Assembly (NCBI RefSeq): GCF_051903065.1
Contig: NZ_CP178438.1
From: Escherichia coli
GTDB taxonomy: Bacteria; Pseudomonadota; Gammaproteobacteria; Enterobacterales; Enterobacteriaceae
DNA length: 64,000 nt
Reading direction: 5' to 3' (one strand)
The position numbers were made by a program, and so were the translations under genes. The notes beneath the pieces are model-generated. The model did no database searches, was not told the DNA's origin, and saw nothing but the letters and a program-made list of their open reading frames with translations. This document shows, piece by piece, positions 4,499 through 48,938 of the stretch (within the stretch, counting starts at the first letter, position 1; every line of letters begins with the position of its first letter).

Positions 4499-4732
4499 TT
4501 AATGCAGCCAGCTGTCGTCTTCCCACACCTTCTGCATAATTTTCATCACTTGTTTTCTTTCTTCGTCCAGTTGCAGTCCGGTCAGTTCCACACCGTTAGA
4601 GCTACCTTTGCGGATACGAATTACCGTTTTGGGATACAGGGGGCGCAGATTGCGGTAAAGCTCGGATTCAAGGGCGTCCAGTGTAGACTGGCTAATCTTC
4701 TGCTCTTTATCGATCATTATTTCAATGCGCAT
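4499..4732 (-). CDS. DinI-like protein (possibly the C-terminal part of a frameshifted tum-like antirepressor gene)
   Basis: Translation MRIEIMIDKEQ...WEDDSWLH resembles the DinI family; the longer ORF 4499..4804 overlaps the upstream small ORF in another frame. Confidence 0.6.
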   Translation of the reverse strand: MRIEIMIDKEQKISQSTLDALESELYRNLRPLYPKTVIRIRKGSSNGVELTGLQLDEERKQVMKIMQKVWEDDSWLH

Positions 4733-4742
4733 AAAAGTCACC

Positions 4743-4931
4743 TCAGCTGATGACATCCATTGAGCGGTTGTATTCGTGGGTTCTGATTTTTGCCATGAGT
4801 TCATCTGTCAGTTCAGAAACCCACTGCAGAGCCAGCCCCTTCTCTTCATCACTACACTCACTAGCCGCTACAAGCTTAAGAAAAAAATCAATGCGCTGGA
4901 GCTTCAAAGACTCCAAAAAATAGTCCTGCAT
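4743..4931 (-). CDS. Small SOS-regulated ORF (possible N-terminal part of a tum-like gene)
   Basis: 62-aa ORF directly downstream of a LexA box; with the DinI-like ORF spans about 144 codons. Confidence 0.4.
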   Translation of the reverse strand: MQDYFLESLKLQRIDFFLKLVAASECSDEEKGLALQWVSELTDELMAKIRTHEYNRSMDVIS

Positions 4932-4972
4932 CTTTCCTCCTATGACACCAAAGCAATACTGTATATATAATC

Positions 4973-4992
4973 ACTGTTTATATTTACAGTAT
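4973..4992. promoter_or_regulatory. LexA (SOS) box upstream of the tum/DinI-like operon
   Basis: CTGT-N8-ACAG core (ctgtttatatttacag) at 4974..4989 in an AT-rich promoter region, preceded by a CTGT half-site. Confidence 0.6.
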
Positions 4993-5083
4993 ATAATAAT
5001 CTTACTGATGTAAAACGTTTTTTTACGTTCATCAGCCTGATATGCCTGGTATTATTAAGAGCACGAATTGTTAACCCGCGTAA

Positions 5084-7498
5084 TTAATACAGGTTTCGCC
5101 ACTTATCATCTTCCTGCAAACGCTGGTTCCGATAGAAGATACGCAGGCCTGCTCCTGACGGAATACTGCCACCGCGAAGGAGTAAATCGACCTCTTTCTC
5201 GCTGCCATCAAATCCTCTGGACTTCAGTTCATAGACGAGCTGCTGTCGCTGATGATCTGTAATTCGCTGTTTGTAGTCTTTACGCCGTTTCGGCTTAACC
5301 AGGCGTAACCTTGCTGCCAGTTCCCGGCGCTCTTTTTTGCTCATACTGTGCAGATAATCGTGCAACTCCTTGTCATCCATGCGGGTAATATCCGTTCTGG
5401 TGTCCCCATCAGCTGATTTATCTTTCTCCTGTTGGTTCAAATTTTCAGCAAGGGGACAGTTATTGCCACGAGTCCAAGGGGCGCAAGCGCCCTGGTCGGC
5501 TACCGCCTCCTGAACGTCAACGGCTTTACGAACCATTTTCCACTTCACTGCATGAGTGCAGATCTTGCCCTCTGCAATGGGTGACCAGATGCCATAAATA
5601 CGAATGCCGTGATCGCCATAGGCGGTCGGCTCTTCGTTAATTTCATAAGCAGTTCTGATGAGGTGATATTTGCGGGGAACCAGTACGCCACCCTGCTTCA
5701 TGATGTAAGTGGCAAAACAACCAGCATCAGCAGCAGCCAGGATGGCATCAAGGCGCGGGTTATCCAGTACCGGCGCACCTGCTTTTTTGTCGCCCTGTTG
5801 CCTTGCCGCCTGACCAGCCAGCAATCGCAGTTCACGGTAAGCCTGACGCCCCGGAATACCAAAGAAGCGGAATTGCTGAACACGATGCAGAGACGCCCAG
5901 GCATTAACGTATTCAGCGTTATCACGCAGGGATTTACCCGTTTCCTTGCTGATCTCGCCAGCCAGACCACGCCCGTCAATGTTCTTACTAATGTATTTCG
6001 CAATGTAGCTTGTCGGCGTTCCTTTGCGCGGGTTTATCAGCTCAGACTTAAAGCGTGGCCCCGTGTTATTGCCCAGCTCCTCGCGGTCTTCACGGATGGC
6101 AAACTTACGCAACAATGCAGTAATGGCGCGGCGGTCTTTTTTGCGCATGAAACACAACAGGTGCCAGTGAACTGTGCCGTCATGATGCGGCTCAGCCACC
6201 CGCACGCCATACCAGCGCAACCCGGCTTTGTGCATAGCCTTACGAAATGCAGCAAACATGCCGACCAGATAATCGCTGCTTTGTCTTACTGTCGCGTTGG
6301 TCCAGGTCGGGTTTGGCCTGCCGTTATTTAGCGTGGAATGGAAACGTGACGGACAGGTGATGGTGTAGAAAACGGCGCAGTCACCACGCATTTCCGCGAT
6401 AAGCTCCAGGCCTTTAACACAGGCCATCATCTCGTTGCGGCGATGCGCCGGGTTGCTGCTGCTGGCGTTTACCACATCCTCCATGTTCAGCGTGTCGCCG
6501 TCTTCGTTCACCAGTTCATGAGAACGGAAAAACTCCAGCGACTTACGGCGCTGCTCACGTTTATGCATCACGGCTTCATAGCTAACATAGGGAGATGCTT
6601 TTTTGCTGACCAGGCAGACAGCACGCAACTGCTCTTCCCGCAATTCGCAACGCATCTTCCATAATTTCCGATACCACCAGTCGGCGCACAGCATACGCGC
6701 CAGCGAACCCGGAATGAGTTCATAAGGCACAGGTTTGCGGCGGTTTCTTTTCCGGCGGAGTTGCTCAAACGCAGGCGGTATGACATCCAGTCGCAGGGTT
6801 TCTGCAGCCACCTTTTCCCATGTCTTGCGGATTTCTTCTGGCTTAACATCATCGGAGGCGTACAAATCACCACAAGCGGCATCAAGACACATGCTCATAT
6901 GCGCAGCGACAAGGGTAGACAGGCGTTTCACCTGATCCTGACTCATTTCAGGCAGGATCAGCAGACCGTCCAGCCCCTCATGGCTTGCCATAAAACGAAA
7001 AGATGCAGATAGCTGGCTGTCGCGTACATGCTCCAGTCGTTCCAGACATGGCTTAATCGTCTCACGCAAATAGCGGGAATAAGCCTTTGGCCTGCCCATG
7101 CTGCTGAAATATTCAATACGTTGCATCAGCGGCTTGCTGATATGGGAAGGCTGGGCGTTGACGTCAGCCAGAATGACCATGTCTGGATTAAAACGCTGCT
7201 GCTCATGCGCCATCTTTGCCCGGCTAATGAGCTTATCCTGCTCCATTTCGCGTTGGACAGGATCACGGGATTCATTAAAGAAATAATGCTCCCAGACCTG
7301 ATCACTCAGTGCCTCGCGGCGCAGTTGTTCCTGCTCGTTATCGGTAGCGTACAGAGTGATCAGGTTTGAAAGCGCAGAAACCGGCGCAACTTCCGCCGGG
7401 TCCAGATAAGGGTTAATGGCCTTTTTCGGGCTGTTCCATGAGAACGCTGCGGCAGCCTCGTTAAAGCCGCAGCAGTTGTTCATATCGGCATGACTCAT
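5084..7498 (-). CDS. Phage replication initiation protein (P2/186 gene A-like rolling-circle endonuclease)
   Basis: 804-aa ORF in the early-operon position of P2-like phages. Confidence 0.75.
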
Positions 7499-23091: not shown

Positions 23092-24540
23092 ATGAAACTG
23101 AACGACAGTAACTTATTCCGCCAGCAGGCGTTGATTAACGGGGAATGGCTGGACGCCAACAATGGTGAAGTCATCGACGTCACCAATCCGGCGAACGGCG
23201 ACAAGCTGGGTAGCGTGCCGAAAATGGGCGCAGATGAAACCCGCGCCGCTATCGACGCCGCCAACCGCACCCTGCCCGCATGGCGTGCGCTCACCGCCAA
23301 AGAACGCGCCAACATTCTGCGCAACTGGTTCAATTTGATGATGGAGCATCAGGACGATTTAGCGCGCCTGATGACCCTCGAACAGGGTAAACCGCTGGCT
23401 GAAGCGAAAGGCGAAATCAGCTACGCCGCCTCTTTTATTGAGTGGTTTGCCGAAGAAGGCAAACGCATTTATGGCGACACCATTCCCGGTCATCAGGCCG
23501 ATAAGCGCCTGATTGTTATCAAGCAGCCGATTGGCGTCACCGCGGCCATCACACCATGGAACTTCCCGGCGGCGATGATTACCCGTAAAGCCGGCCCGGC
23601 GCTGGCGGCAGGCTGCACCATGGTGCTGAAGCCCGCCAGTCAAACGCCGTTCTCTGCGTTGGCGCTGGCGGAGCTGGCGATCCGCGCGGGCATTCCGGCA
23701 GGCGTGTTTAACGTGGTCACCGGTTCGGCGGGCGCGGTGGGTAACGAACTGACCAGCAATCCGCTGGTGCGCAAACTGTCGTTTACCGGTTCGACCGAAA
23801 TTGGCCGCCAGTTAATGGAACAGTGCGCGAAAGACATCAAAAAAGTGTCGCTGGAGCTGGGCGGCAACGCGCCGTTTATCGTCTTTGACGATGCCGATCT
23901 CGATAAAGCCGTGGAAGGCGCACTGGCTTCGAAATTCCGCAACGCCGGGCAAACCTGCGTCTGCGCCAACCGTTTATATGTGCAGGACGGCGTGTATGAC
24001 CGCTTTGCCGAAAAATTGCAGCAGGCGGTGAGCAAACTGCATATCGGCGACGGGCTGGAGAAAGGCGTCACCATCGGGCCGCTGATCGATGAAAAAGCGG
24101 TAGCAAAAGTGGAAGAGCATATTGCCGATGCGCTGGAGAAAGGCGCGCGCGTGGTTTGCGGCGGTAAAGCGGATGAACGCGGCGGCAACTTCTTCCAGCC
24201 GACCATTCTGGTGGACGTTCCAGCCAACGCCAAAGTCTCGAAAGAAGAGACGTTCGGCCCCCTCGCCCCGCTGTTCCGCTTTAAAGATGAAGCCGATGTG
24301 ATTGCGCAAGCCAATGACACCGAGTTTGGCCTTGCCGCCTATTTCTACGCCCGTGATTTAAGCCGCGTCTTCCGCGTGGGCGAAGCGCTGGAGTACGGCA
24401 TCGTCGGCATCAATACCGGCATTATTTCCAATGAAGTGGCCCCGTTCGGCGGCATCAAAGCCTCGGGTCTGGGTCGTGAAGGTTCGAAGTATGGCATCGA
24501 AGATTACTTAGAAATCAAATATATGTGCATTGGTCTTTAA
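23092..24540 (+). CDS. gabD: Succinate-semialdehyde dehydrogenase
   Basis: 482 aa from MKLNDSN; aldehyde dehydrogenase motifs. Confidence 0.95.
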   Translation: MKLNDSNLFRQQALINGEWLDANNGEVIDVTNPANGDKLGSVPKMGADETRAAIDAANRTLPAWRALTAKERANILRNWFNLMMEHQDDLARLMTLEQGKPLAEAKGEISYAASFIEWFAEEGKRIYGDTIPGHQADKRLIVIKQPIGVTAAITPWNFPAAMITRKAGPALAAGCTMVLKPASQTPFSALALAELAIRAGIPAGVFNVVTGSAGAVGNELTSNPLVRKLSFTGSTEIGRQLMEQCAKDIKKVSLELGGNAPFIVFDDADLDKAVEGALASKFRNAGQTCVCANRLYVQDGVYDRFAEKLQQAVSKLHIGDGLEKGVTIGPLIDEKAVAKVEEHIADALEKGARVVCGGKADERGGNFFQPTILVDVPANAKVSKEETFGPLAPLFRFKDEADVIAQANDTEFGLAAYFYARDLSRVFRVGEALEYGIVGINTGIISNEVAPFGGIKASGLGREGSKYGIEDYLEIKYMCIGL

Positions 24541-24553
24541 CTGGAGAACGCGA

Positions 24554-25834
24554 ATGAGCAGCAATAAAGAGTTAATGCAGCGCCGCAGTCAGGCAGTTCC
24601 TCGTGGCGTTGGGCAAATTCACCCCATTTTCGCTGATCGCGCGGAAAACTGCCGGGTGTGGGACGTTGAAGGCCGTGAGTATCTTGATTTCGCGGGCGGC
24701 ATTGCGGTGCTCAATACCGGGCACCTGCATCCTAAAGTGGTTGCGGCGGTGGAAGCGCAGTTGAAAAAATTGTCGCACACCTGCTTCCAGGTGCTGGCTT
24801 ACGAGCCGTATCTGGAGCTGTGCGAGATTATGAATCAGAAGGTGCCGGGCGATTTTGCCAAGAAAACGCTACTGGTCACCACGGGTTCCGAAGCGGTGGA
24901 AAACGCGGTGAAAATCGCCCGCGCCGCCACCAAACGTAGCGGAACTATCGCCTTTAGCGGCGCGTACCACGGGCGCACGCATTACACGCTGGCGCTGACC
25001 GGCAAGGTGAATCCGTACTCTGCGGGCATGGGGCTGATGCCTGGGCACGTTTATCGCGCGCTTTATCCTTGCCCGCTGCACGGCATCAGTGAAGATGACG
25101 CTATCGCCAGCATTCACCGAATTTTTAAAAATGATGCTGCGCCGGAAGATATCGCCGCCATCGTGATTGAGCCGGTTCAGGGCGAAGGCGGTTTCTACGC
25201 CGCGACGCCAGCCTTTATGCAGCGTTTACGCGCGCTGTGTGACGAGCACGGGATCATGCTGATTGCCGATGAAGTGCAGAGCGGCGCGGGGCGTACCGGC
25301 ACGCTGTTTGCGATGGAGCAGATGGGCGTTGCGCCGGATCTTACCACCTTTGCGAAATCGATCGCGGGCGGTTTCCCGCTGGCGGGCGTCACCGGGCGCG
25401 CGGAAGTGATGGATGCCGTCGCTCCAGGCGGTCTGGGCGGAACCTATGCCGGTAACCCGATTGCCTGCGTAGCTGCGCTGGAAGTGTTGAAGGTGTTTGA
25501 GCAGGAAAATCTGCTGCAAAAAGCCAACGATCTGGGGCAGAAGCTAAAAGACGGATTGCTGGCGATAGCCGAAAAACACCCGGAGATCGGCGACGTACGC
25601 GGCCTGGGAGCGATGATTGCCATCGAGCTGTTTGAAGATGGCGATCACAGCAAACCGGACGCCAAACTCACCGCCGAGATCGTGGCTCGCGCCCGCGATA
25701 AAGGCCTGATTCTTCTCTCCTGCGGCCCGTATTACAACGTGCTGCGCATCCTTGTACCGCTCACCATTGAAGACGCTCAGATCCGTCAGGGTCTGGAGAT
25801 CATCGGCCAGTGTTTTGCTGAGGCGAAGCAGTAG
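24554..25834 (+). CDS. gabT: 4-aminobutyrate aminotransferase
   Basis: 426 aa from MSSNKELMQRR; class III aminotransferase. Confidence 0.95.
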   Translation: MSSNKELMQRRSQAVPRGVGQIHPIFADRAENCRVWDVEGREYLDFAGGIAVLNTGHLHPKVVAAVEAQLKKLSHTCFQVLAYEPYLELCEIMNQKVPGDFAKKTLLVTTGSEAVENAVKIARAATKRSGTIAFSGAYHGRTHYTLALTGKVNPYSAGMGLMPGHVYRALYPCPLHGISEDDAIASIHRIFKNDAAPEDIAAIVIEPVQGEGGFYAATPAFMQRLRALCDEHGIMLIADEVQSGAGRTGTLFAMEQMGVAPDLTTFAKSIAGGFPLAGVTGRAEVMDAVAPGGLGGTYAGNPIACVAALEVLKVFEQENLLQKANDLGQKLKDGLLAIAEKHPEIGDVRGLGAMIAIELFEDGDHSKPDAKLTAEIVARARDKGLILLSCGPYYNVLRILVPLTIEDAQIRQGLEIIGQCFAEAKQ

Positions 25835-25844
25835 CACCGCCCCC

Positions 25845-26110
25845 ATGCCGGAGGCGACGCTGCGCGTCTTGTCCGGCCTACAGGTATCAGGTCGGATAAG
25901 GCGTTTACGCCGCATCCGACATTCGGCGCACCATGCCGGAGGCGACGCTTACGCGTCTTGTCCGGCCTACGGAAATGTAGGTCGGATAAGGCGTTTACGC
26001 CGCATCCGACAATCGGCGCACCCATGCCGGAGGCGACGCTTTGCGTCTTGTCCGGCCTACGGGGATCCAGGTCGGATAAGGCGTTTACGCCGCATCCGAC
26101 AATCTGTACG
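25845..26110. repeat. REP/BIME cluster (about 4 REP units) between gabT and gabP
   Basis: Repeated gccggatgcggcgtaaacgccttatccgacct units in alternating orientation. Confidence 0.85.
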
Positions 26111-26250
26111 TGAACAGGAATAAATCTATGTTGGCCGGGTAAGGCGGAGCCGCTCTCCGGCAAAAAGAATCAATAACAATTAAACGCGTGACCCGACGCG
26201 GGAAATGTCGGGGCGCTCTCCCAAGTGACACACTTTCGAGAGGATTCAGG

Positions 26251-27651
26251 ATGGGGCAATCATCGCAACCACATGAGTTAGGCGGCGGGCTGAAGTCACG
26301 CCATGTCACCATGTTGTCTATTGCCGGTGTTATCGGCGCAAGTCTGTTTGTCGGTTCCAGCGTCGCCATCGCCGAAGCGGGCCCGGCGGTATTACTGGCC
26401 TATCTGTTCGCCGGGCTACTGGTGGTTATGATTATGCGGATGTTGGCGGAAATGGCGGTTGCCACGCCCGATACCGGTTCGTTTTCCACCTATGCCGATA
26501 AAGCCATTGGTCGCTGGGCGGGCTATACCATCGGCTGGTTGTACTGGTGGTTTTGGGTACTGGTTATCCCGCTGGAAGCCAACATCGCCGCCATGATCCT
26601 GCACTCGTGGGTTCCAGGCATTCCCATCTGGTTATTTTCCCTCGTCATTACCCTTGCCTTAACTGGCAGTAATTTATTAAGCGTTAAAAACTACGGCGAA
26701 TTTGAGTTCTGGCTGGCGCTGTGCAAAGTCATCGCTATCTTGGCCTTTATTTTCCTTGGTGCAGTCGCAATTAGCGGTTTTTACCCGTATGCCGACGTGA
26801 GCGGGATCTCAAGATTGTGGGATAGCGGCGGCTTTATGCCCAACGGCTTCGGTGCGGTATTAAGCGCGATGTTGATCACCATGTTCTCGTTTATGGGCGC
26901 AGAAATTGTCACCATTGCCGCCGCGGAATCCGACACGCCGGAAAAACATATTGTCCGCGCTACCAACTCGGTTATCTGGCGTATTTCTATCTTCTATTTG
27001 TGCTCTATTTTTGTCGTAGTGGCGTTAATACCGTGGAATATGCCGGGGCTGAAAGCCGTTGGTTCTTATCGCTCGGTTCTGGAATTGCTCAATATTCCCC
27101 ATGCGAAATTAATCATGGACTGCGTGATATTACTTTCCGTAACCAGCTGTCTGAACTCGGCGCTGTATACCGCGTCAAGGATGCTCTACTCCTTAAGCCG
27201 TCGCGGTGATGCGCCCGCGGTAATGGGCAAAATCAATCGCAGTAAAACCCCGTATGTGGCGGTGTTACTCTCCACCGGAGCGGCATTTTTAACGGTGGTG
27301 GTGAACTATTACGCACCTGCGAAAGTGTTTAAATTCCTGATAGACAGCTCCGGTGCTATCGCCCTGCTGGTTTATTTAGTCATCGCCGTTTCACAGTTGC
27401 GGATGCGTAAAATTCTGCGAGCAGAAGGAAGCGAAATTCGCTTGCGCATGTGGCTTTACCCGTGGCTCACCTGGCTGGTAATAGGCTTTATTACCTTTGT
27501 GTTGGTGGTGATGTTATTCCGCCCGGCGCAACAGTTAGAAGTGATCTCTACCGGCTTATTAGCGATAGGGATTATCTGTACCGTGCCGATTATGGCGCGC
27601 TGGAAAAAGCTGGTATTGTGGCAAAAAACACCCGTTCATAATACGCGCTGA
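26251..27651 (+). CDS. gabP: GABA permease
   Basis: 466 aa from MGQSSQPHELGGGLKSRH; APC transporter. Confidence 0.95.
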   Translation: MGQSSQPHELGGGLKSRHVTMLSIAGVIGASLFVGSSVAIAEAGPAVLLAYLFAGLLVVMIMRMLAEMAVATPDTGSFSTYADKAIGRWAGYTIGWLYWWFWVLVIPLEANIAAMILHSWVPGIPIWLFSLVITLALTGSNLLSVKNYGEFEFWLALCKVIAILAFIFLGAVAISGFYPYADVSGISRLWDSGGFMPNGFGAVLSAMLITMFSFMGAEIVTIAAAESDTPEKHIVRATNSVIWRISIFYLCSIFVVVALIPWNMPGLKAVGSYRSVLELLNIPHAKLIMDCVILLSVTSCLNSALYTASRMLYSLSRRGDAPAVMGKINRSKTPYVAVLLSTGAAFLTVVVNYYAPAKVFKFLIDSSGAIALLVYLVIAVSQLRMRKILRAEGSEIRLRMWLYPWLTWLVIGFITFVLVVMLFRPAQQLEVISTGLLAIGIICTVPIMARWKKLVLWQKTPVHNTR

Positions 27652-44604: not shown

Positions 44605-44620
44605 TCCAGAGGTGCGTGTG

Positions 44621-46159
44621 ATGCAACAGCAAAAACCGCTGGAAGGCGCGCAACTGGTCATTATGACGATTGCGCTGTCACTGGCGACATTCATGCAGGT
44701 GCTGGACTCCACCATTGCTAACGTGGCGATCCCCACTATCGCCGGGAATCTGGGCTCATCGCTCAGCCAGGGAACGTGGGTAATCACTTCTTTCGGGGTG
44801 GCGAATGCCATCTCGATCCCGCTTACCGGCTGGCTGGCAAAGCGCGTCGGGGAAGTGAAACTGTTCCTCTGGTCCACCATCGCCTTTGCTATTGCGTCGT
44901 GGGCGTGTGGTGTCTCCAGCAGCCTAAATATGCTGATCTTCTTCCGCGTGATTCAGGGGATTGTCGCCGGGCCGTTGATCCCGCTTTCGCAAAGTCTATT
45001 GCTGAATAACTACCCGCCAGCCAAACGCTCAATCGCGCTGGCGTTGTGGTCGATGACGGTGATTGTCGCGCCAATTTGCGGCCCGATCCTCGGCGGCTAT
45101 ATCAGTGATAATTATCACTGGGGCTGGATATTCTTCATCAACGTGCCGATTGGCGTGGCGGTGGTGTTGATGACATTGCAGACGCTGCGCGGACGCGAAA
45201 CCCGCACCGAACGGCGGCGGATTGATGCCGTGGGGCTGGCACTGCTGGTTATTGGTATCGGCAGCCTGCAGATTATGCTCGACCGCGGTAAAGAGCTGGA
45301 CTGGTTTTCATCACAGGAAATTATCATCCTTACCGTGGTGGCGGTGGTGGCTATCTGCTTCCTGATTGTCTGGGAGCTGACCGACGATAACCCGATAGTC
45401 GATCTGTCGTTGTTTAAGTCGCGCAACTTCACCATCGGCTGCTTGTGTATCAGCCTCGCGTATATGCTCTACTTCGGCGCTATTGTTCTGCTGCCGCAGT
45501 TGTTGCAGGAGGTCTACGGTTACACGGCAACGTGGGCAGGTCTGGCCTCTGCGCCGGTAGGGATTATTCCGGTGATCCTGTCGCCGATTATCGGCCGCTT
45601 CGCGCATAAACTGGATATGCGCCGACTGGTAACCTTCAGCTTTATTATGTATGCCGTCTGCTTCTACTGGCGTGCCTATACCTTTGAACCGGGCATGGAT
45701 TTTGGCGCGTCGGCCTGGCCGCAGTTTATCCAGGGCTTCGCTGTGGCCTGCTTCTTTATGCCGCTGACCACCATTACGCTGTCTGGTTTGCCACCGGAAC
45801 GACTGGCGGCGGCATCAAGTCTCTCCAACTTTACGCGTACGCTGGCGGGGTCTATCGGCACGTCGATAACCACAACCATGTGGACCAACCGCGAGTCGAT
45901 GCACCATGCGCAGTTAACCGAGTCGGTAAACCCGTTCAACCCGAATGCCCAGGCGATGTACAGTCAACTGGAAGGGCTTGGGATGACGCAACAGCAGGCC
46001 TCCGGCTGGATTGCCCAGCAGATCACTAACCAGGGGCTGATTATTTCCGCCAATGAGATCTTCTGGATGTCAGCCGGGATATTCCTCGTCCTGCTGGGGC
46101 TGGTGTGGTTTGCTAAACCGCCATTTGGCGCAGGTGGCGGCGGAGGCGGTGCGCACTAA
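44621..46159 (+). CDS. emrB: Multidrug efflux MFS pump EmrB
   Basis: 512 aa from MQQQKPLEGAQL. Confidence 0.95.
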   Translation: MQQQKPLEGAQLVIMTIALSLATFMQVLDSTIANVAIPTIAGNLGSSLSQGTWVITSFGVANAISIPLTGWLAKRVGEVKLFLWSTIAFAIASWACGVSSSLNMLIFFRVIQGIVAGPLIPLSQSLLLNNYPPAKRSIALALWSMTVIVAPICGPILGGYISDNYHWGWIFFINVPIGVAVVLMTLQTLRGRETRTERRRIDAVGLALLVIGIGSLQIMLDRGKELDWFSSQEIIILTVVAVVAICFLIVWELTDDNPIVDLSLFKSRNFTIGCLCISLAYMLYFGAIVLLPQLLQEVYGYTATWAGLASAPVGIIPVILSPIIGRFAHKLDMRRLVTFSFIMYAVCFYWRAYTFEPGMDFGASAWPQFIQGFAVACFFMPLTTITLSGLPPERLAAASSLSNFTRTLAGSIGTSITTTMWTNRESMHHAQLTESVNPFNPNAQAMYSQLEGLGMTQQQASGWIAQQITNQGLIISANEIFWMSAGIFLVLLGLVWFAKPPFGAGGGGGGAH

Positions 46160-46166
46160 GGTTGTC

Positions 46167-46192
46167 AAAGGGAGCTTCGGCTCCCTTTTTAT
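46167..46192 (+). terminator. Rho-independent terminator after emrB
   Basis: gggagc-ttcg-gctccc followed by TTTTT. Confidence 0.8.
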
Positions 46193-46416
46193 TTGCTCAT
46201 TCTGCAAACGGTTGTTTTATCCACTCATTCGGTGTATCTTTTCGCCGCCCCAAACTCTTCCATTCACCATTAACCGGTTCTGAGCATTCGCTCAGGTTGT
46301 TAATTCTCTTTTTCCTTCGCCCTCGCTTTCGCGGGTGATACTCACATTTTCCGTTTAACCCCATAACTCGCACCCTCGCGGGCGTACGTTTATTACACAC
46401 AAAATAATGGATTATT

Positions 46417-47124
46417 ATGAATACCCAACTTAAATACGGGAGAACCTGGCATTATCCTTTCTCCCCCGGCACCACCAGCGATGACCGCATTAACGCCGAT
46501 TACTGGCAGGATTTACAGGCCATCACGCAATTGGTGCACACAGAAAAACTCGACGGCGAAAATAACTGCCTTAACCGCTACGGCGTGTTTGCCCGTTCCC
46601 ATGCTGCGCCTACGCAGTCGGCATGGACTTATAAAATTCGCCAGCGTTGGCAACTGCTGAAAAACGATCTCGGCGATCTGGAACTGTTTGGTGAAAATCT
46701 CTACGCCGTTCATTCCATTGAATACCGCGCACTGGAACAGGACTTTTACCTGTTTGCCGTTCGCTGCCAGGATATGTGGCTGAGCTGGGAAGAGGTGCAG
46801 TTTTACGCCGCTCTGTTTGATTTCCCCTTCGTTCCCGAAATCTCCGGTCCGCAGCCGGGGAATGATGAAAAAAGCTGGCAACGTGATTTTCTGGCACTGA
46901 CCAATGCGCGCGGCGCGTTCGATCCCTGGGATACACAAACCGGGCAACCCTGTACGCTGGAAGGCATTGTCAGCCGGAATCGTGATGCGTTTTCCGTCGC
47001 TGACTTTTCGCATAACGTCTTCAAGTATGTGCGCAAAAATCATGTCAAAACCACCGTGCACTGGAAACGACACTGGCAACGGGCGCGGATGGCCCATGAG
47101 TTCGCTTATGGAGAACAGTCATGA
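46417..47124 (+). CDS. ATP-dependent polynucleotide (RNA) ligase-like nucleotidyltransferase
   Basis: Motif I EKLDGEN (KxDG), motif IV-like LEGIVSR, motif V-like [10 protein letters not shown]. Confidence 0.65.
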
Positions 47125-48233
47125 TTTGGCAGCTTACCGACGATAAACGCTGGTCGACACTACGCCAGCGTTTCAGTTGGGTTGAGGAGATGCATCACAC
47201 GCCACAAGACCCTGAGCATCATGGTGAAGGCGACGTCGGCCTGCATACCGAAATGGTGCTGAACGCCCTCGTTACTCTGCCAGAATTCCAGCAACTCCCC
47301 GCTCAACAGCAGGAAGTTTTATGGGCGGCGGCGTTATTGCATGATGTTGAAAAGCGCAGCACTACCGTGCAGGAAAACGGACGTATTCAGTCGCCGGGCC
47401 ATGCTCGTCGGGGCGAACTGACGGCCCGGCTGATTTTGTGGCGCGATATCCCAACGCCGTTCATGCTGCGCGAGCAAATCGTTGCGCTGGTGCGTCTGCA
47501 TGGGTTACCGCTATGGTTACTGGAACGTCCGGAACCGGAGCGTTTGCTGCTCACGGCTGCAATGCGCATCGACACGGGTCTGCTCGCTTTGCTTGCTCGT
47601 GCCGATCTGCTTGGTCGCCAAAGCCCGGATCGGCAATCAATGCTGGAACGCATCGATCTGTTCGAGCTGTTTTGCCAGGAGCAACAGTGTTGGGGAAAAG
47701 TGCGCTCGTTCGTGTCTGATTCCGCACGCTGGCATTACCTGACCCATGAGCAAAGTTCTCCTGATTTTGTTCCCTGGGAGGCTGAACCTTTTGAGGTCAT
47801 TTTGCTGTGTGGCTTACCGGGTATGGGCAAAGATCGCTATATCAATGAACAGTGCCAGGGAATGGACGTTATCAGCCTTGATGATATGCGGCGGCGAATC
47901 AATGCCAATCCGGACGACAAAACCGCCACCGGGCGTATTGTGCAACAGGCAAAAGAAGAGGCACGCGTTTTTTTACGCCAGAAAAAGCCGTTCATCTGGA
48001 ATGCAACGAACATTACCCGCCAGCTGCGTAGCCAGCTCATCAGCCTGTTTACGGCTTACGGCGCACGAGTAAAAATCGTTTATCTTGAAGTGCCATGGGC
48101 GCAATGGAAGCAGCAAAATGCCAGACGCGAGTATGCAGTTCCTGAAGCGGTCGTGATGCGGATGGCCTCAAGGCTGGAAGTTCCTCAACCTGATGAAGCA
48201 CATAGCGTGGAGTATCGGGTGATTGAAAGGTAA
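47121..48233 (+). CDS. HD-domain phosphohydrolase / P-loop NTPase fusion (predicted polynucleotide kinase-phosphatase)
   Basis: N-terminal H..HD motifs ([18 protein letters not shown]); C-terminal Walker-A-like GLPGMGKD; start overlaps ligase stop by 4 bp. Confidence 0.6.
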
Positions 48234-48272
48234 AAAAACCGGGCGGTGGTGTCACCTGCCCGGCTTCTTTTG
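48232..48272. terminator. Bidirectional terminator between the HD/P-loop gene and luxS
   Basis: Imperfect GC hairpin flanked by A-run and T-run. Confidence 0.5.
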
Positions 48273-48281
48273 TTCCACTGA

Positions 48282-48797
48282 CTAAATGTGCAGTTCCTGC
48301 AACTTCTCTTTCGGCAGCGCCAGTTCTTCGTTGCTGTTGATGCGCACGTCACGTTCCAGAATGCTACGCGCAATATCCTGCGCTTCCTGCAACGAGTGCA
48401 TCTGGTAAGTGCCACACTGGTAGACGTTCAGTTCCGGGATCTGATTCTGATCCTGCACTTTCAGCACGTCTTCCATTGCCGCTTTCCAGGCATCAGCAAC
48501 ACGCTGCTCATCTGGCGTACCAATCAGACTCATATAAAAACCGGTGCGGCAGCCCATTGGCGAGATATCGATAATCTCTACACCATTACCGTTAAGATGG
48601 TTACGCATAAAACCAGCAAACAGGTGCTCCAGGGTATGGATCCCTCTTTCTGGCATCACTTCTTTGTTCGGCACGCAGAAGCGCAGATCGAACACGGTGA
48701 TTGCGTCGCCATGCGGGGTGTTCATTGTTTTCGCCACCCGAACTGCAGGCGCTTCCATCCGGGTATGATCGACTGTGAAGCTATCTAACAACGGCAT
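48282..48797 (-). CDS. luxS: S-ribosylhomocysteine lyase (AI-2 synthase)
   Basis: 171 aa with HTLEH motif. Confidence 0.95.
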
Positions 48798-48865: not shown

Positions 48866-48938
48866 GAAAGACGCGCATTTGTTATCATCATCCCTGAATT
48901 CAGAGATGAAATTTTGGCCACTCACGAGTGGCCTTTTT
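48866..48938 (+). ncRNA. micA: Small RNA MicA (SraD)
   Basis: GAAAGACGCGCATTTGTTATCATCATCCCTGAATTCAGAGATGAAATTTTGGCCACTCACGAGTGGCCTTTTT matches MicA with intrinsic terminator. Confidence 0.9.

Follow-up and report, generated by a model that had tools for sequence, protein, structure and literature searches.

Here, we describe a two-gene segment that lies between emrB and luxS in a 64,000-nucleotide stretch of Escherichia coli DNA (contig NZ_CP178438.1 of assembly GCF_051903065.1; hereafter the window). Gene 1 encodes a 235-residue protein of the RNA ligase family, and gene 2 encodes a 370-residue protein that fuses an HD phosphohydrolase domain to a polynucleotide-kinase-like P-loop domain (HD-Pnk). 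With a probability of roughly 60%, we read the pair as a co-translated healing and sealing pathway for RNA ends that carry a 2′,3′-cyclic phosphate or 3′-phosphate and a 5′-OH. This reading draws on the identities of the domains, the conservation of their catalytic residues, the obligate pairing of the two genes, the purifying selection acting on them, and the linkage of the pair to RNA-repair genes in other taxa.

In the proposed mechanism, a break would leave a 2′,3′-cyclic phosphate (or a 3′- or 2′-phosphate) and a 5′-OH, the end chemistry that results from the action of ribotoxins, among them colicins, anticodon nucleases and many toxin RNases. The gene 2 product would then act on both ends: its HD domain would hydrolyze the phosphate at the 3′ end to leave a 3′-OH, while its P-loop kinase would phosphorylate the 5′-OH with a nucleoside triphosphate. 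The gene 1 product would self-adenylylate on Lys44, pass the AMP to the new 5′-phosphate and catalyze attack by the 3′-OH, whereby the strand would be resealed. Kinase and phosphoesterase activities of HD-Pnk and auto-adenylylation of the ligase are known for homologs. That the gene 1 ligase seals strands, that the substrate is RNA and not DNA, and which molecule is the natural target are points that we only infer.

A stand-alone RNA-ligase-family domain encoded by gene 1

Gene 1 matched the Pfam family RNA_ligase (PF09414) with an E-value of 8.4e-28 over residues 38–205. We aligned 17 gene 1 homologs from Enterobacterales and Bacteroidota that are 60–83% identical to the window protein (alignment A2), and the nucleotidyltransferase motifs were invariant throughout: motif I with the nucleophilic position K44 in EKLDGEN (residues 43–49), motif III with E93 in FGENLY, motif IIIa with F113 in FYLFAV, motif IV with E182-G183 in the segment E182-G-I-V, and motif V with K203 and R206 in FKYVRKNH. 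R60, which by our own assignment is Ia-like, was invariant as well, as was a 19-residue N-terminal segment (residues 6–24) that was modeled with low confidence.

Searches of PDB sequences with gene 1, in single-sequence as well as in profile form, returned zero ligases and repeat-protein artifacts only, and a fold search was therefore needed. Among the rejected matches, residues 78–165 were paired with mollusc hemocyanins (phmmer, E 1.5e-6) and with a designed beta-propeller (profile search, E 9e-7); we regard these as artifacts because many weak hits were summed over the internal repeats of the targets. The AlphaFold model of gene 1 (predicted local distance difference test score [pLDDT] of 76.5 and predicted template-modeling score of 0.79) yielded 34 top PDB matches at E ≤ 1e-3, almost all of them nucleotidyltransferase domains of RNA ligases, the best being 6vt4 (E 1.7e-6). 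Naegleria Rnl5, T4 Rnl2, archaeal Rnl3, the fungal tRNA ligase Trl1, REL1 and T4 Rnl1 were the closest folds, with a query template-modeling (TM) score of about 0.5 against targets that are 100–150 residues longer. The comparison with the Rnl families revealed a shared nucleotidyltransferase fold, and none of the accessory domains of Rnl1 to Rnl5, such as the C-terminal domain of Rnl2 or the N-terminal domain of Rnl5, is present in the 235-residue protein. Its sequence places gene 1, together with Deinococcus radiodurans DR_B0100, in a separate minimal ligase-like clade outside Rnl1 to Rnl5. Its identity as a stand-alone, ATP-dependent nucleotidyltransferase domain of the RNA ligase family is well supported.

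An HD phosphohydrolase–kinase fusion encoded by gene 2

The N-terminal part of gene 2 gave weak matches to Pfam HD and NCBIfam HDIG profiles, with PF01966 recognized in many of its homologs, and it also matched the HD region of the CCA-adding/repair enzyme. Both profile and fold searches linked this region to the Aquifex aeolicus tRNA nucleotidyltransferase (3wfo/3wfp). Across 17 gene 2 homologs from the same two phyla (alignment A1), residues H34, D38, H42, H74-D75, K78, H94, E99, H127, D162 and R166 were invariant. The metal-binding set of the HD fold (H34, H74-D75, H94, H127 and D162) is complete, with H74-D75 and K78 lying in the segment LLHDVEK (residues 72–78). From these features, the domain is predicted to be a phosphoesterase acting on 2′,3′-cyclic, 3′- or 2′-phosphates.

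The C-terminal 150 residues matched AAA_33 (E 6e-32). They include a Walker A motif, GLPGMGKD (residues 231–238; window positions 47811–47834), with K237 as the catalytic lysine, followed by the conserved residues D254, R257, WNATN (293–297), R303, Q332-N333 and R336. In the comparison with Pnkp-type enzymes, K237, D254 and R257, the expected Walker A lysine, general-base Asp and phosphate-binding Arg, aligned with K21, D38 and R41 of the Clostridium thermocellum Pnkp kinase. This kinase, L-seryl-tRNA(Sec) kinase and T4 Pnk were the nearest relatives of solved structure, joined by mammalian PNKP when compared by fold; Foldseek returned a TM score of 0.74 to 4gp6 (root-mean-square deviation of 2.6 Å) and to 1ly1. 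The match to the NCBIfam model of bacterial Pnkp (TIGR04075) covered the kinase segment only and scored 34 bits, where the cut-off is 750. The full-length model was confident (pLDDT 92). The identity of gene 2 as an N-terminal HD phosphohydrolase joined to a C-terminal Pnkp-type kinase is well supported.

An earlier reading, made by a model from the letters of the window alone (the sequence-only reading), had seen ligase motifs in gene 1 and an HD and P-loop fusion in gene 2. Both assignments are borne out, the former by the family match, the invariant motifs and the Rnl-type fold, and the latter by the invariant HD set, the AAA_33 match and the polynucleotide-kinase relatives. Neither frame is a chance ORF (open reading frame): database homologs at E ≤ 1e-5 number more than 2,000 for each, and the ratio of nonsynonymous to synonymous substitution rates (dN/dS) lies within 0.04–0.16.

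Conserved pairing and RNA-repair neighborhoods

A homolog scan over one genome per species returned at least 499 relatives, and the HD-Pnk/ligase cassette is therefore widespread at the species level, with further copies on plasmids and in huge phages. In the neighborhoods of the best 80 loci, which come from Enterobacterales and Bacteroidota and include Bacteroides fragilis, the gene directly upstream of HD-Pnk, on the same strand, is the ligase gene in every case (80/80). Of 81 loci, 55 have overlapping frames, and 80 have frames that overlap or are no more than 18 nt apart. Proteins closely related to the E. coli pair (53–58% identity) are found in Cytophagales (Dyadobacter among them), the order to which Runella also belongs. 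The pairing further holds at 30–47% identity on replicons of Pseudomonas, Variovorax, Chondrinema and Deinococcus and in a 462-kb uncultured phage.

That phage (LR756500.1) encodes adjacent ligase and HD-Pnk homologs in the same order at 24519–26287 (36–39% identity), so huge phages carry the module too. Several jumbo phages encode ligase homologs alone.

In 22 of the 80 loci, the pair has a co-oriented RtcB gene as its neighbor, with PrfH placed between RtcB and the ligase in 10 of the 22. Such co-oriented RtcB–PrfH–ligase–HD-Pnk clusters were found in Serratia (loci L007:3480-7101, L008 and L009) and in Bacteroides (L054:3204-7113, L027, L033, L040, L042 and L069). In NCBIfam scoring of two loci, PrfH exceeded the TIGR03072 cut-off in both Serratia and Bacteroides, while RtcB exceeded the TIGR03073 cut-off in Serratia and fell below both RtcB-family cut-offs in Bacteroides. 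Two tandem genes of the RlaP family (PF10127) adjoin the pair in three of the 80 loci (L015:3025-4721, L061:7300-8942 and L062:7300-8942, from Flammeovirgaceae, Parachryseolinea and Dawidia), the first of which also carries RtcB. RtcB2–PrfH is an established system for the rescue and repair of ribosomes cleaved by colicin E3 (PMC9304027, PMC9223846), and RlaP is an RNA-ligase-associated nucleotidyltransferase family (PMC12776372). Since genes for RtcB, PrfH and RlaP adjoin the pair, an RNA (or ribosome) substrate is favored.

The four-gene clusters span two phyla and join ribosome rescue and repair to the healing and sealing pair. We found no mention of this linkage in the accessible literature.

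Other neighborhoods offered no functional clue: the genes beside the pair in Xenorhabdus and Providencia (alr, tyrB, dnaB and others) are housekeeping genes and were set aside as uninformative. An annotation as anti-phage defense was likewise rejected, as zero PADLOC-DB 2.0 families matched either protein at E ≤ 0.01.

Relationship to known healing and sealing systems

Judged by its sequences and gene order, the pair is a member of an already described, poorly understood bacterial healing and sealing module and not a new kind of system. The proposal of a healing-and-sealing module in the sequence-only reading is supported by the domains, by the published logic of the Runella slithyformis cassette and by the RtcB, PrfH and RlaP context. 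[quoted passage not shown] Compared through that description, the E. coli pair has the same arrangement of an upstream, overlapping ligase gene and the same domain order and size of HD-Pnk. It differs in that the genes for the 2′-phosphotransferase Tpt1 and for methyltransferase-HIT, which are adjacent to the Runella cassette, are not at the E. coli locus. Runella itself was neither among the best 80 loci of the genome scan nor among the 120 best matches of a Dyadobacter-seeded search. A literature search on the E. coli locus, made through guessed CFT073 locus tags, found nothing relevant.

The pair resembles T4 Pnkp with Rnl1, and bacterial Pnkp–Hen1, in that healing by a 5′-kinase and a 3′-phosphoesterase would precede sealing by an ATP-dependent ligase, and the T4 Pnk and C. 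thermocellum Pnkp kinases are structurally the closest to the kinase domain of gene 2. The phosphoesterase, however, is HAD-type in T4 and calcineurin-type in bacterial Pnkp, whereas an HD domain takes this place in the E. coli pair; likewise, the E. coli ligase is a separate minimal protein, unlike Rnl1 or the C-terminal ligase domain of Pnkp. The segment has no third gene, and hence no Hen1 methyltransferase.

RtcB2–PrfH shares one co-oriented cluster with ligase–HD-Pnk in Serratia and several Bacteroides species but is absent from the E. coli locus. RtcB joins 3′-phosphate and 5′-OH ends directly and without healing, whereas the E. coli module would proceed through 3′-OH and 5′-phosphate ends. 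Because RtcB–PrfH and ligase–HD-Pnk are combined in one cluster, we suggest that the two systems share a class of damage.

Distribution and evolution in E. coli and its relatives

A survey of the emrB–luxS interval across 5,426 complete E. coli genomes, proposed as a check by the sequence-only reading, found the 2.1-kb segment in 998–999 of them, always as a single chromosomal copy at this position. Carriers include sequence type (ST) 131, ST95, CFT073, avian pathogenic E. coli (APEC) O2:K1 and one O145 strain, and almost every listed carrier has the two reading frames intact. In genomes that lack the pair, the emrB–luxS spacer measures 63 bp and contains a different hairpin; strain HT-948 is one such genome, with 63 bp from emrB to luxS. 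In K-12, emrB is presumably next to luxS and the pair absent, an assumption carried over from the sequence-only reading.

Outside E. coli, the order emrA–emrB–[ligase–HD-Pnk]–luxS–gshA recurs in E. albertii, Klebsiella spallanzanii, one Enterobacter species and Superficieibacter. Citrobacter and Kosakonia hold the pair in the same slot together with an extra porin gene and a larger insert, respectively, and in Phytobacter the pair follows emrB at a locus whose examined part stops short of luxS. Between the window strain and ST131, the two genes have a synonymous divergence (dS) of 0.17 and 0.12, similar to the 0.10 of emrB. Their dN/dS is 0.12–0.16 within E. coli and 0.04–0.06 against Klebsiella, gene 1 by itself spanning 0.04–0.12, and from these ratios the pair is under purifying selection.

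Since the same slot is occupied in at least six other enterobacterial genera and dS matches that of emrB, loss is likelier than acquisition, and the pair is more likely a long-standing occupant of the emrB–luxS slot in Enterobacteriaceae, from which the E. coli lineages now without it, K-12-like ones included, have dropped it. The sequence-only reading had called the segment a strain-variable islet; the variability stands, while the overtone of acquisition does not agree with the shared slot. A mobile-element origin was also rejected, as zero direct repeats, inverted repeats, integrase genes or insertion sequences flank the segment and the conserved synteny opposes a recent insertion.

The dS of luxS between the same two strains is only 0.018, against about 0.10–0.17 for emrB (44612–46159) and the two genes of the segment. 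This value, far below those of its neighbors, hints that recombination had a breakpoint at the segment's right edge or close to it.

About 18% of E. coli, the major extra-intestinal pathogenic lineages among them, hold the cassette in intact form and under purifying selection, and its clean presence or absence offers a ready isogenic genetic system for asking whether it repairs RNA or DNA and what the ligase joins. Candidate RNA damage for such tests comprises cuts made in tRNA or rRNA by colicins, anticodon nucleases or toxins of contact-dependent inhibition, and the combination with RtcB–PrfH in Serratia and Bacteroides provides the lead hypothesis for what HD-Pnk and the ligase repair.

Weighing of alternative functions

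Several observations weigh against an RNA healing and sealing pathway. Its weakest link is the sealing step, because the Runella ligase formed ligase-AMP and yet joined none of the tested RNA or DNA 3′-OH/5′-PO4 substrates (PMC6097658). In E. coli itself, no RNA-repair gene lies beside the pair. In gene 2, the residue after the catalytic lysine is Asp238, invariant in the Enterobacterales/Bacteroidota clade; Ser or Thr is the usual residue after the P-loop lysine. The pair is also dispensable, since about 82% of complete E. coli genomes lack it and the ligase gene of CFT073 (L083:1448-2145) is annotated as a frameshifted pseudogene. Finally, the only in vivo phenotypes for homologs concern DNA damage, and for this reason they count against an RNA role. 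These come from D. radiodurans, where DR_B0098 is required for resistance to ionizing radiation and DR_B0100 reportedly acts as a DNA ligase dependent on DR_B0098 and PprA (PMC6300522). It is accordingly conceivable that HD-Pnk cleans 3′-phosphate/5′-OH ends of DNA after damage by oxidation, radiation or nucleases and that the ligase closes nicks in DNA or joins its ends, along the lines proposed for the Deinococcus ligB operon. Both Deinococcus proteins are full-length homologs of the E. coli pair, gene 1 matching DR_B0100 (LigB/DdrP) with 35% identity (E 1e-26) and gene 2 matching DR_B0098 with 30% identity over residues 5–369 (E 2e-34), and their genes stand first and last in one operon (DR_B0100–DR_B0099–DR_B0098). 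Runella HD-Pnk, for its part, reportedly dephosphorylates DNA 3′-phosphate ends as well (Munir and Shuman, 2017). The Deinococcus operon lies on the megaplasmid MP1 and is radiation-induced and implicated in DNA-damage resistance (PMC6300522). On the other hand, it has the extra PARG-like gene DR_B0099 between ligase and HD-Pnk; the Deinococcus proteins are distant, and their HD-Pnk carries the P-loop GPSGSGKS as opposed to GLPGMGKD. The closest homologs of the E. coli proteins (50–85% identity) cluster with RtcB, PrfH and RlaP and not with DNA-repair genes, the fold and Pfam family of gene 1 are those of RNA ligases, and the scan of the window gave no credible LexA box 5′ of the pair. We therefore consider DNA-break repair unlikely. 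The role in RNA repair put forward by the sequence-only reading is favored by the RtcB, PrfH and RlaP neighbors, with the contribution of the Deinococcus homologs to radiation resistance as a qualification.

The behavior of the Runella ligase also raises the question of whether the gene 1 product is a general sealing enzyme at all. It might act on an unusual end, such as the 3′-OH/2′-PO4 end used by fungal tRNA ligase, or on a specific structured target such as rRNA within the ribosome or one tRNA, or it might stop at 5′-adenylylation and so mark or cap the ends prepared by HD-Pnk. The position of the Runella cassette next to Tpt1, as given in its description (PMC6097658), would suit this explanation, as would the bare 235-residue nucleotidyltransferase domain that lacks the substrate-binding accessory domains of Rnl1 to Rnl5. 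The invariant N-terminal segment of gene 1 could, as modeled, bind a partner or a substrate, and our literature search found no later paper reporting a substrate for the ligase. On the other hand, motifs III, IV and V of the sealing step are all invariant, and Tpt1 is adjacent to the pair in none of the 80 loci. Runella HD-Pnk reportedly also removes 2′-phosphates (Munir and Shuman, 2017), which speaks against a ligase that depends on a 2′-PO4. Taken together, such a specialized ligase seems rather improbable. Improbable to a far greater degree is that the pair is a dispensable relic in E. coli, drifting to loss without a current function. Decay does happen, as the CFT073 frameshift attests, and in genomes related to CFT073 the ligase match is 10 bp shorter while HD-Pnk is intact. 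The relic explanation is nevertheless contradicted by purifying selection, seen between divergent E. coli alleles (dS 0.12–0.17) as well as against Klebsiella, by the intact frames of nearly all listed carriers and by the retention of the same slot in at least seven genera, among them Escherichia, Citrobacter, Klebsiella, Enterobacter, Superficieibacter and Kosakonia.

Within the preferred reading of RNA healing and sealing, a more specific form can be drawn, which we hold to be doubtful. Beside PrfH–RtcB, the pair may serve as a second, dedicated arm in the repair of ribosomes or tRNA, directed against ribotoxins of the colicin E3 type or related ones, with a ligase specific for a structured natural target. 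If so, this target could be the cleaved 16S rRNA in a rescued subunit, and the Runella ligase would adenylylate without sealing generic substrates because it is target-specific. The pair would then add toxin resistance in the extra-intestinal pathogenic E. coli lineages that retain it (ST131, ST95 and ST73).

Locus layout, upstream region and neighboring features

The two plus-strand ORFs of the emrB–luxS interval (Table 1) share 4 nt (ATGA), and a GGAG lies 9–12 nt 5′ of the gene 2 start. The emrB stop codon is at 46159–46161, and luxS is convergent, at 48282–48797 on the minus strand. The left edge of the variable segment is the emrB terminator, which has a 9-bp GC-rich stem (−14.8 kcal/mol, z-score −2.95) and is kept, as the alignment revealed, in Klebsiella, Kosakonia, Phytobacter, Enterobacter and Superficieibacter. 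The right edge is the bidirectional terminator, which folds at −19 kcal/mol (z-score −3.1) on the plus strand and −26 kcal/mol (z-score −6.4) on the minus strand. The translational coupling and the bracketing by terminators noted in the sequence-only reading match these coordinates, and its interval of 46196–48280 is about right, because homology to the empty allele stops right after the emrB stop (~46161) and restarts at ~48268 beside the luxS stop.

Table 1. Features of the emrB–luxS segment in window coordinates
Feature	Position	Strand	Basis or detail
emrB intrinsic terminator hairpin	46167..46188	+	AAAGGGAGC-TTCG-GCTCCCTTT then T-run; terminator scan
Putative sigma-70 promoter of the pair	46212..46240	+	−35 TTGTTT (46212–46217), 17-nt spacer, −10 TATCTT (46235–46240)
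Conserved hairpin CTGAGC-loop-GCTCAG	46279..46296	+	Inside conserved non-coding block ~46235–46305
Gene 1, ligase	46417..47124	+	PF09414, alignment A2, fold model
Gene 2 (47121–48233), HD phosphohydrolase domain, ~residues 1–215	47121..47765	+	Weak HD profiles, alignment A1, fold
Gene 2, P-loop polynucleotide 5′-kinase domain, ~residues 222–370	47784..48233	+	AAA_33, PDB matches
Bidirectional intrinsic terminator, common to gene 2 (+) and luxS (−)	48231..48272	both	Folding; A-run and T-run flanks

The 255-bp region 5′ of gene 1 holds promoter-like hexamers and a conserved block of ~70 nt. The hexamers form a putative promoter of the pair, whose geometry recurs in the alignment as TTGCAA-17 nt-TATTCT in Enterobacter and TTGCAA-17 nt-TATTAT in Superficieibacter; the site scores under the threshold of the consensus promoter scan. 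Transcription is predicted to begin near 46247. In seven sequences from six genera, the stem of the hairpin within the block is nearly invariant, while its loop varies in length and sequence, and in a 51-nt context it folds at −12.7 kcal/mol (z-score −3.5). The stretch 46212–46305 is possibly a regulatory leader of the ligase gene. As a structured RNA gene, the segment was rejected, with zero Rfam matches between emrB and luxS. SOS regulation was rejected as well, because the hairpin palindrome resembles a LexA box no better than chance sites do: CTGAGC-N4-GCTCAG fits CTGT-N8-ACAG only with two mismatches, and 280 other such two-mismatch sites occur in the window against 216 expected by chance.

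Beyond luxS, the 5′ part of the MicA small RNA (Rfam RF00078, 39.2 bits), within which the searched range ended, was recognized at 48866–48900 and beyond, between luxS and gshA, which we take to be the expected, known gene at this position. About 40 kb upstream of the gene pair, a perfect LexA-box palindrome, CTGTTTATATTTACAG (4974–4989), lies upstream of a DinI-like ORF (4499–4804, minus strand), which adjoins an 804-residue protein resembling the P2 gpA replication protein, both identified by eye from their translations. The two ORFs indicate a P2-like prophage in this part of the window (4499–7498).

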